Of a stretch of DNA of 64,000 nucleotides, positions 30,188 to 31,218 are shown piece after piece. Every line of letters starts with the position of its first letter. The first letter of the stretch is position 1. Position numbers and translations under genes: made by a program. This stretch comes from Shigella phage Silverhawkium. The notes beneath the pieces were generated by a model, which saw only the letters and a program-made list of their open reading frames with translations, did no database searches and was not told the DNA's origin. The stretch lies in sequence record MK562505; one strand, given 5' to 3'.

Positions 30188-30775
30188 ATGAAACTGTTAA
30201 ATATCAAAATCACTGGTACTCGTCCTTTCCTGAGCCACGCCGATACTCTGTCAGACCCGTTAAACCCTCTGACAAAATATCACAAGTCTCTCTCAAGTAA
30301 ACGTAAAAAGACTGACGAAGACTACGCTCTCTTAGCAGAGAGTCAACTGGTAACCTCTTGTTACTACGACGAGCAACTAGGTTTTGTTATGAACGGTGAG
30401 ATGATTGAGGCTTGTATCAAGTCTGGTGCAAAACTCAACAAACTTGGCAAGGTAATTGACCGAGCCATTATGCTGACAGATGTAGTCTTCCCAATGACTA
30501 TTAAGAACTGTCCAGCAAACCCACAAGAACTAGCTAAGAACCAAGACTTTATCTATGCGAAGTCTGTTAAGATTGGCACAGCACGAGTTATGAGCTACCG
30601 TCCAATCTTCCGTGACTGGTCTGTAGAGTTCGGCTTGATGTTTGATGAAGAACAAATTACCAAAGAAGAACTCTTGATGGTTCTGGAAAATGCTGGCAAC
30701 CTTTGTGGTGTAGGTGATTGGCGTCCACGCTTTGGTCGTTTTTCTGTAGAAGTTATTTCAGAAGGTAATGTTTAA
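30188..30775 (+). CDS. hypothetical protein (196 aa), first gene of the repeat-flanked cassette
   Basis: ATG at 30188 (ORF-track GTG at 30173). Confidence 0.5.
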
Positions 30776-30777
30776 TT

Positions 30778-31218
30778 ATGAATACAAAAGCATTAGCAGC
30801 AAAGTTTAGTTACGGTGATACTGTATCACACTCTGAGATGGACACCTTCTTAGGTATTGAGAAGCCAACTTATCAAGGTAACATTGTTAAGTACGAAGAT
30901 GAAATGAAGGCTTACGCGCTTACACGCCTAAATCGACTTGAGAAGTTTATTGAGAAGCTTCTTAAAGAAGAGAAGATTTATCTGGTTGCTTCAATGGGTG
31001 TTGGTTATCGCGTGGTTGAACCCAAACATCAAGCAACTATTGCAAAACGTAAAATGTCTAGTAAGATTGGTCGTGCTTTAAAGCAAGCCACTCAAGCGAT
31101 TGAGAATGTGAACACTATGGCACTGAGTCATCAAGAACGTTCACGACTGATTGAACAGCAAAACCATTTAGCTGCCATGAAAGCTAACATTAACAAACAA
31201 CGTAGAAAGCCTTTCTAA
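30778..31218 (+). CDS. hypothetical protein (146 aa) with basic C-terminus
   Basis: ORF 3 nt after the previous stop; C-terminus NINKQRRKPF. Confidence 0.5.
   Translation: MNTKALAAKFSYGDTVSHSEMDTFLGIEKPTYQGNIVKYEDEMKAYALTRLNRLEKFIEKLLKEEKIYLVASMGVGYRVVEPKHQATIAKRKMSSKIGRALKQATQAIENVNTMALSHQERSRLIEQQNHLAAMKANINKQRRKPF

Follow-up and report, generated by a model that had tools for sequence, protein, structure and literature searches.

Two Shigella phage genes between GGYNN repeat arrays carry the sequence features of a type II VIPR system

What do two adjoining phage genes do when they lie between blocks of short tandem repeats? A preliminary description of the window, by which we mean the whole 64,000-nucleotide stretch of Shigella phage Silverhawkium DNA that was analysed, pointed out two open reading frames, ORF1 and ORF2, bracketed by GGTNN repeats. 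It offered two readings: the repeats delimit an exchangeable cassette, or the encoded proteins act on the elements that flank them. We conclude, with a probability of about 0.93, that a Mooglevirus-like phage of the Ounavirinae carries here a complete type II VIPR (Viral Interference Programmable Repeat) locus. Such a feature is known already, in that preprints from 2026 explain both the “unknown” genes and the GGTNN repeats. The example also indicates that raw sequence reading alone, with no database search, can flag a VIPR-type system.

VIPR is a class of RNA-guided DNA recognition described only in April-June 2026, and a proposed ancestor of CRISPR effector proteins; the locus studied here falls in the very clade that was characterised. 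[quoted passage not shown] Its protein, Vipr, is a minimal RAMP, and its guide RNAs (vrRNAs) are ~100 nt long and comprise 9-16 GGY-NN pentamers and a structured 3' tail. For the SUSP1 system, the preprints report small-RNA sequencing, pull-down, cryo-EM, and GFP and lambda assays, and state that the complex silences transcription of competing mobile elements. They also place the skip bases at codon wobble positions of natural VIPR targets.

The two genes as vipr and vap1

ORF1 is nearly identical to a protein of solved structure. In a profile search against PDB sequences, its residues 1-195 aligned with 36pp_D, “SUSP1 Vipr protein”, at E = 1e-129 with 2 substitutions. An AlphaFold (AF2) model built from an alignment of 41 sequences reached pLDDT 93, and all 43 of its PDB matches at E <= 1e-3 were subunits of the Cas7 type from type III (Csm/Cmr) and type VII CRISPR effector complexes, with probabilities of ~1.0 and TM scores of 0.4-0.5. 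The 519 homologues of ORF1, ~190 aa each, come from phages, prophages and metagenomes, and the conserved motifs of this family include a glycine-rich loop at the C-terminus. ORF1 keeps H17, K33, R39, K82, K88, R138, D177, W178 and R179, which are all of the function-linked residues of the cryo-EM preprint. That work (bioRxiv 10.64898/2026.04.26.720920 /.720927) ties these Vipr residues to G1, G2 and Y3, to the skip base and to the non-target strand. From its near-identity to the SUSP1 protein, we identify ORF1 as Vipr, which would bind RNA from the GGTNN arrays and polymerise on their GGY motifs. Of the two preliminary readings, the second thus holds for ORF1.

ORF2 begins with an ATG at 30778, leaving a gap of 2 nt after the ORF1 stop. 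Among 75 distant viral loci with a vipr homologue, nearly all have vipr overlapping the next gene by 1-8 nt, and that gene is in nearly all cases vap1-like, encoding 150-165 aa. Because the same gene pair overlaps in 70 or more distant homologous loci, we regard tight coupling as a conserved trait. The distant vap1-like proteins give weak pairwise matches to ORF2 and share its G-x-G-Y-x-x-V-x-P-x-x-Q wing motif and its C-terminal helices. A word-indexed homology search with ORF2 returned only close relatives and no distant family; an exhaustive HMMER search gathered a Vap1 family of 260 members. On these sequence grounds we assign ORF2 as vap1, coupled to vipr and related by homology to the genes that accompany vipr in distant loci.

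In the ORF2 model (pLDDT 94.9), a helix-strand-helix-long helix-beta wing unit leads into a long helical hairpin. A Foldseek search of PDB returned nothing significant; the weak top matches were winged-helix proteins (ScpB, MarR, SaeR and histone H1) at E >= 0.68. In the preprints cited above, Vap1 is predicted to be a winged-helix-like DNA binder and enhances protection. DNA binding by Vap1 is a prediction, and the winged-helix assignment carries no statistical backing from the fold search.

These results bear on most of what had been said about the gene pair. The coupling of the ORFs and the 146 aa of ORF2 stand; ORF1 encodes 195 aa, one fewer than first given, its stop being the TAA at 30773-30775, and a GGAG lies 9 nt 5' of its ATG. 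Both had been described as lacking a recognisable motif, and indeed neither protein matched Pfam, NCBIfam or PADLOC, with PHROGs returning only families of unknown function. The C-terminal NINKQRRKPF of ORF2 is present as described. The nucleic-acid binding read from it agrees with the preprints' prediction for Vap1, with the winged-helix matches non-significant as noted, and nothing singles out the basic tail. A strong promoter does stand upstream, placed 5' of the first repeat module and not directly before ORF1, and the terminator downstream of the genes was found as a hairpin with a T-run (Table 1).

Locus layout, guide RNAs and bracketing hairpins

GGTNN arrays occur at exactly four sites in the window, all on the + strand, with one pair to the left of the genes and another to the right, so the ORFs do lie between two repeat regions as reported. 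Each module consists of a 16-17-bp hairpin, a GGYNN array of 14, 8, 13 or 12 units, and a 36-nt tail (Table 1).

Table 1. Features of the VIPR locus in the window, and satellite islands in E. coli chromosomes (positions of the islands are those of loci L087, L088 and L090)
Feature	Position	Strand	Description
Type II VIPR locus	29796-31560	+	Four vrRNA genes, two either side of vipr and vap1
Promoter P1, sigma-70-type	29796-29823	+	TTGACA-16-TATACT, 11/12; 5' of vrRNA1; -35 region is the left junction relative to Sf14
Leader hairpin before vrRNA1	29855-29891	+	17 bp with several G.U pairs; -17.3 kcal/mol, z = -5.5
vrRNA1 (assigned guide RNA)	29896-30001	+	14 GGYNN units, 29896-29965; tail 29966-30001; NN = AT AT AC TC GG AT TT TC GG AA GT CC AA AT
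Hairpin between vrRNA1 and vrRNA2	30002-30037	+	
vrRNA2 (assigned guide RNA)	30038-30113	+	8 GGYNN units, 30038-30077; tail 30078-30113; NN = AG AA TA AA AT TG TA AT
Hairpin between vrRNA2 and vipr	30114-30151	+	
vipr (ORF1, assigned)	30188-30775	+	195 aa, ancestral RAMP (Cas7-like); PDB 36pp match, fold matches
vap1 (ORF2, assigned)	30778-31218	+	146 aa, Vipr-accessory; winged-helix-like N-terminal part and long helical hairpin (model)
Intrinsic terminator-like hairpin after vap1	31230-31252	+	AGCCTCTTCGGAGGCT then T-run
Hairpin before vrRNA3	31246-31283	+	Last two bases overlap the first array unit
vrRNA3 (assigned guide RNA)	31282-31382	+	13 units, 31282-31346; tail 31347-31382; NN = TC AA TC AT CT AT CC GC TC GT AA GA AT
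Hairpin before vrRNA4	31383-31418	+	z = -3.8
vrRNA4 (assigned guide RNA)	31419-31514	+	12 units, 31419-31478; tail 31479-31514; NN = TT TC AT TA GT GA GT TC AA CA TT AT
Terminator-like hairpin enclosing P2	31513-31560	+	Right junction of the locus
Promoter P2	31532-31560	+	TTGACA-17-TATTTT; for the downstream genes
Satellite island, E. coli (L087)	5250-16700		
Satellite island, E. coli (L088)	3650-15100		
Satellite island, E. coli (L090)	3930-15900		

The repeats vary in the manner of vrRNAs. We compared 46 vrRNAs from 11 phage loci (the window and 10 others) and five E. coli satellites. Across 456 units from 44 distinct arrays, entropy was 0.80, 0.08 and 0.50 bits at the successive G, G and Y positions, against 1.96 and 1.93 bits at the two N positions. 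In this set GGTAT almost invariably closes the array, and this last unit, being near-constant, behaves as part of the handle and not of the guide. Within the window, the first G is degenerate (TGT or AGT) in 5 of the 12 units of vrRNA4, and vrRNA2, with its 8 units, falls under the published 9-16 range.

The tails form an H-type pseudoknot of 4 + 6 bp and fall into a handful of variants, set apart from one another by compensatory changes. Among 15 distinct tails, 92.7% of cells pair and double-sided changes are found at 9 of the 10 pairs; none of 500 shuffles reached the score, and slid controls paired at 33-47%. An Rfam search with the locus RNA gave no match. The association of arrays with vipr extends well beyond close relatives: same-strand GGYNN arrays abut vipr or vap in 70 of the 75 distant vipr loci and in 1 of 75 shuffled controls. 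With GGY conserved, NN hypervariable and the pseudoknot tail covarying, we read the flanking repeats as guide-RNA genes.

How closely does the whole arrangement follow the characterised system? The locus has every sequence feature of the SUSP1 VIPR system and belongs to the SUSP1 clade, type II. SUSP1 is an Escherichia phage whose Vipr is identical at 193/195 residues and whose vap1 is likewise adjacent and coupled; its locus occupies the same genomic slot, from the DNA ligase on one side to a Cro/CI-like regulator operon on the other, and carries the same tail variants with the same pseudoknot. In the window, this slot lies among replication genes (DNA polymerase and ligase). The two phages differ in genus, SUSP1 being a Suspvirus. 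The window phage is an Ounavirinae (Felix O1-like) phage nearest to the Mooglevirus Shigella phages Sf17, Sf18, Sf19 and KPS64, to which it is 93% identical across the locus and 97% across both genes.

The layout and the guides set the window locus apart. SUSP1 has one vrRNA upstream and three downstream, whereas the window has two and two, an arrangement that is new here, as is its unusually short 8-unit guide. All four NN guides differ from those of SUSP1 and of 9 other relatives compared; this guide set, with no array identical to any in the 10 other phage loci, is likewise new. Even Sf19, the closest relative, has 97% gene identity yet entirely different NN strings.

More distant type II loci, those of the Pseudomonas fulva prophage and other temperate phages, encode Vipr proteins 38-50% and Vap1 proteins 25-37% identical to those of the window. 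As in the window, their genes are coupled and their arrays directly adjoin them on the same strand. Unlike the window, they usually carry arrays on a single side, where as many as 6 vrRNAs may follow one another, and their tails differ; their published targets are resident prophage regulators and not satellites.

Because the SUSP1 protein is 99% identical, we transfer to this locus the SUSP1-type assignment and the mechanism worked out in SUSP1 experiments. One Vipr protomer would sit on each GGYNN unit of a ~100-nt vrRNA, and the protomers would assemble into a helical filament in which GGY is buried and the NN dinucleotides are exposed. The exposed dinucleotides would then pair with one strand of double-stranded DNA, skipping every third base, and the resulting protein-clamped R-loop would block transcription. 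Vap1 would enhance this silencing, as it does in SUSP1.

Five hairpins of 16-17 bp bracket every vrRNA (z from -2.0 to -5.5). They are rich in G.U pairs and hence structured only as + strand RNA. In other VIPR types, hammerhead ribozymes fill the slot that these hairpins hold here. The available text of the two VIPR preprints gave no description of inter-guide hairpins in type II arrays, and relative to that text these conserved elements, which may bear on guide maturation, are new. They may be processing or termination signals. A more specific proposal, which we consider rather doubtful, is that they are the maturation signals of type II loci, cut by host RNase III or recognised by Vap1, that Vap1 accordingly serves in guide processing or loading and not in DNA binding, and that vrRNA2 and vrRNA4 are aimed beyond the known satellite. 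At the right end of the locus, a further, terminator-like hairpin with a stem of 13 bp or more (31513-31560; z = -4.3) carries the P2 -35 hexamer within its loop and stops within the -10 region. Since this one hairpin contains the P2 elements, termination of the VIPR transcript and initiation of the downstream operon overlap.

Predicted targets in E. coli satellites

We ran a BLAST search of 5,426 complete E. coli genomes with the upstream region as query, and 153 of them gave vrRNA-tail-like matches. The matches sit in ~11-kb islands (examples in Table 1), which are inserted between wrbA and ymdF or inside a DUF72 gene. In these islands, baseplate and tape-measure genes accompany a serine recombinase, an HNH endonuclease and small genes of unknown function. 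Their baseplate proteins are 63% and their tape-measure proteins 33-51% identical to those of the window (genes at 44836-45630 and 46272-47846). The satellites carry a vrRNA with its own promoter and terminator but neither vipr nor vap1, so they presumably borrow the Vipr of their helper phage.

Two of the four window guides, vrRNA1 and vrRNA3, have matches within coding sequences in these E. coli phage satellites; the predicted sites are L090 9557-9597 for vrRNA1 and L088 10116-10153 for vrRNA3. For the scan we used four satellite islands, chosen by vrRNA-tail similarity independently of the NN code, and all four guides. With a one-base skip, vrRNA1 matched at 25/28 positions, including 12 consecutive perfect units, within a 236-aa gene in the satellite of E. 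coli EC12. Under the same rule, vrRNA3 matched at 22/26, its first 11 units being perfect, within a 107-aa gene in the satellite of strain FAM21845, and at 20-21/26 in two more of the satellites. With skips of 0, 2 or 3 bases the scan gave background scores only, a skip of 3 matching only the arrays themselves, and shuffling the order of units reached the vrRNA1 and vrRNA3 scores in 0 of 300 trials. The skipped bases of both targets all fall at codon position 3. SUSP1 resembles the window in its targets too: they lie in E. coli satellites of this kind and have their skip bases at wobble positions.

Exact scans of IMG/VR added 4 further satellite-like contigs for vrRNA1 and 2 for vrRNA3; loci L091-L096, having been retrieved by the guide patterns themselves, were excluded as independent evidence. 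No recognisable family was found for either target protein. The window itself holds no self-target along its 64 kb, the best self-matches being at background. These two predicted targets in sequenced E. coli strains are new here. During infection, we infer, the phage would use its guides to silence a satellite that otherwise parasitises it.

The other two guides behaved differently. In the satellites, vrRNA2 gave a background score only, and it specifies too few bases for a scan of the collections. No target of vrRNA4 emerged in the satellites or in three public collections: its exact 11-unit and 9-unit patterns had 0 matches in viral contigs, the 11-unit pattern had 0 matches in genome and metagenome contigs, and its 8-unit sub-patterns had 101 matches. 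The best extension of these, a match of units 1-11 at 21/22 in the environmental IMG/VR contigs L130 and L150 (TTGTCAAAGTAGGTGGAAGTGTCCAAACACTT), was rejected, as ~0.4 such matches are expected by chance. vrRNA2 and vrRNA4 may be decaying guides, or may be aimed at elements outside the collections searched.

Mobility of the locus and alternative readings

The locus is an accessory one. The neighbouring ligase is shared by 259 related phage records, of which 117 also have vipr and vap1. In Sf14, a phage of the same genus, the whole locus is absent: homology to the window ends at 29802 and resumes at 31591, a clean indel of ~1.8 kb (Sf14 locus L097, 4602-4842). Both edges of the indel lie at a duplicated promoter -35 sequence, AAAnnTGTTGACA (window 29789-29801 and 31525-31537). 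Given the clean absence in Sf14 and these promoter-sequence edges, the locus behaves as a promoter-bounded accessory module; indel boundaries clear enough to suggest that it moves as such a unit are a further new element here.

Presence and absence of this kind, with its junctions at the duplicated AAAnnTGTTGACA, also favours the cassette reading of the preliminary description, under which the flanking repeats are crossover sites for gene swapping and have no function of their own. We think this very unlikely. The indel junctions fall at promoters outside the repeat modules and not within the GGTNN arrays, and the repeats are under selection as RNA, as strand-specific G.U pairs, the covarying pseudoknot and the combination of fixed GGY with free NN attest. 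Moreover, the arrays of Sf19 are wholly different despite the near-identity of its genes, and arrays go with vipr in unrelated phages. What survives of the cassette is that the whole locus is present or absent, with junctions at promoter -35 sequences; the repeats are not its recombination sites. The relatives compared showed neither the same two genes without flanking repeats nor an unrelated function for them.

Could the resemblance to Cas7 instead mark the remnant of a CRISPR-Cas system, degenerate or miniature, or else an RNA anti-CRISPR decoy, with a stray Cas7 and repeat RNAs that titrate host Cas proteins or mimic crRNA against type I/III immunity? Repeat RNAs with which phages subvert Cas complexes are known, and the ORF1 fold does match Csm3, Cmr4 and type VII Cas7. 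With Vipr these class 1 Cas7 proteins share an RRM core, a glycine-rich loop at the C-terminus and a thumb, and both kinds of protein form a helical filament on guide RNA with periodic base flipping. The periods differ: Vipr buries 3 of every 5 nt and reads the other 2, with a one-base skip on the target, while Cas7 reads 5 of every 6 nt. Sequence HMMs do not connect the two. In contrast to class 1 CRISPR, VIPR has no CRISPR array, adaptation genes, Cas5, Cas6, Cas10, Cas11 or nuclease. Set against class 1 CRISPR-Cas, the locus offers only two genes, no Cas match in PADLOC or Pfam, and a resemblance at the level of fold only.

Further evidence makes the remnant or decoy highly improbable. There is no CRISPR repeat-spacer array between 29.6 and 31.7 kb, and the arrays instead have a 5-nt period with just 2 variable bases. 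PADLOC, Cas HMMs and Rfam gave no match, and the satellite genes are matched only under the one-base-skip code of VIPR. In addition, the near-identical SUSP1 protein is by itself a DNA-targeting silencer, according to the VIPR preprints.

Equally improbable, in our judgement, is that the repeats act as DNA, either as iterons of a replication origin or as protein-binding arrays, with the two genes encoding an initiator and its partner. The setting among replication genes, the direct repeats and AT-rich stretches, and the DNA-binder-like character of ORF2 would suit such elements. Against them, the arrays lie on one strand only, compensatory changes and G.U pairs point to RNA structure, and the variable NN would defeat a single DNA-binding protein. 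About half of the related phages, moreover, replicate without the locus, and Vipr is a RAMP that has been solved as an RNA-bound filament.

A TRAP- or CsrA-like RNA sponge, G-quadruplex DNA, Chi-like sites and origin iterons were each dropped in view of the Vipr structure match and the strand-specific RNA covariation. TRAP, the trp RNA-binding attenuation protein, is nonetheless a parallel for Vipr: an oligomer that, as in Vipr, reads spaced motifs on RNA, in its case (G/U)AG triplets at 2-3-nt spacing. Its fold is unrelated to that of Vipr and its spacers are uninformative, whereas the 2-nt spacers of VIPR are the functional guide.

Two further features of the window were recorded. An ORF for a strongly hydrophobic protein of 49 aa (29641-29790, + strand) lies directly 3' of the DNA ligase gene. 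It is conserved in the VIPR-less Sf14 as well, and is probably a genuine gene for a small membrane protein that has nothing to do with the VIPR locus. Finally, 24 tRNA genes are clustered on the - strand at 59546-63896, as is typical of Felix O1-like phages.
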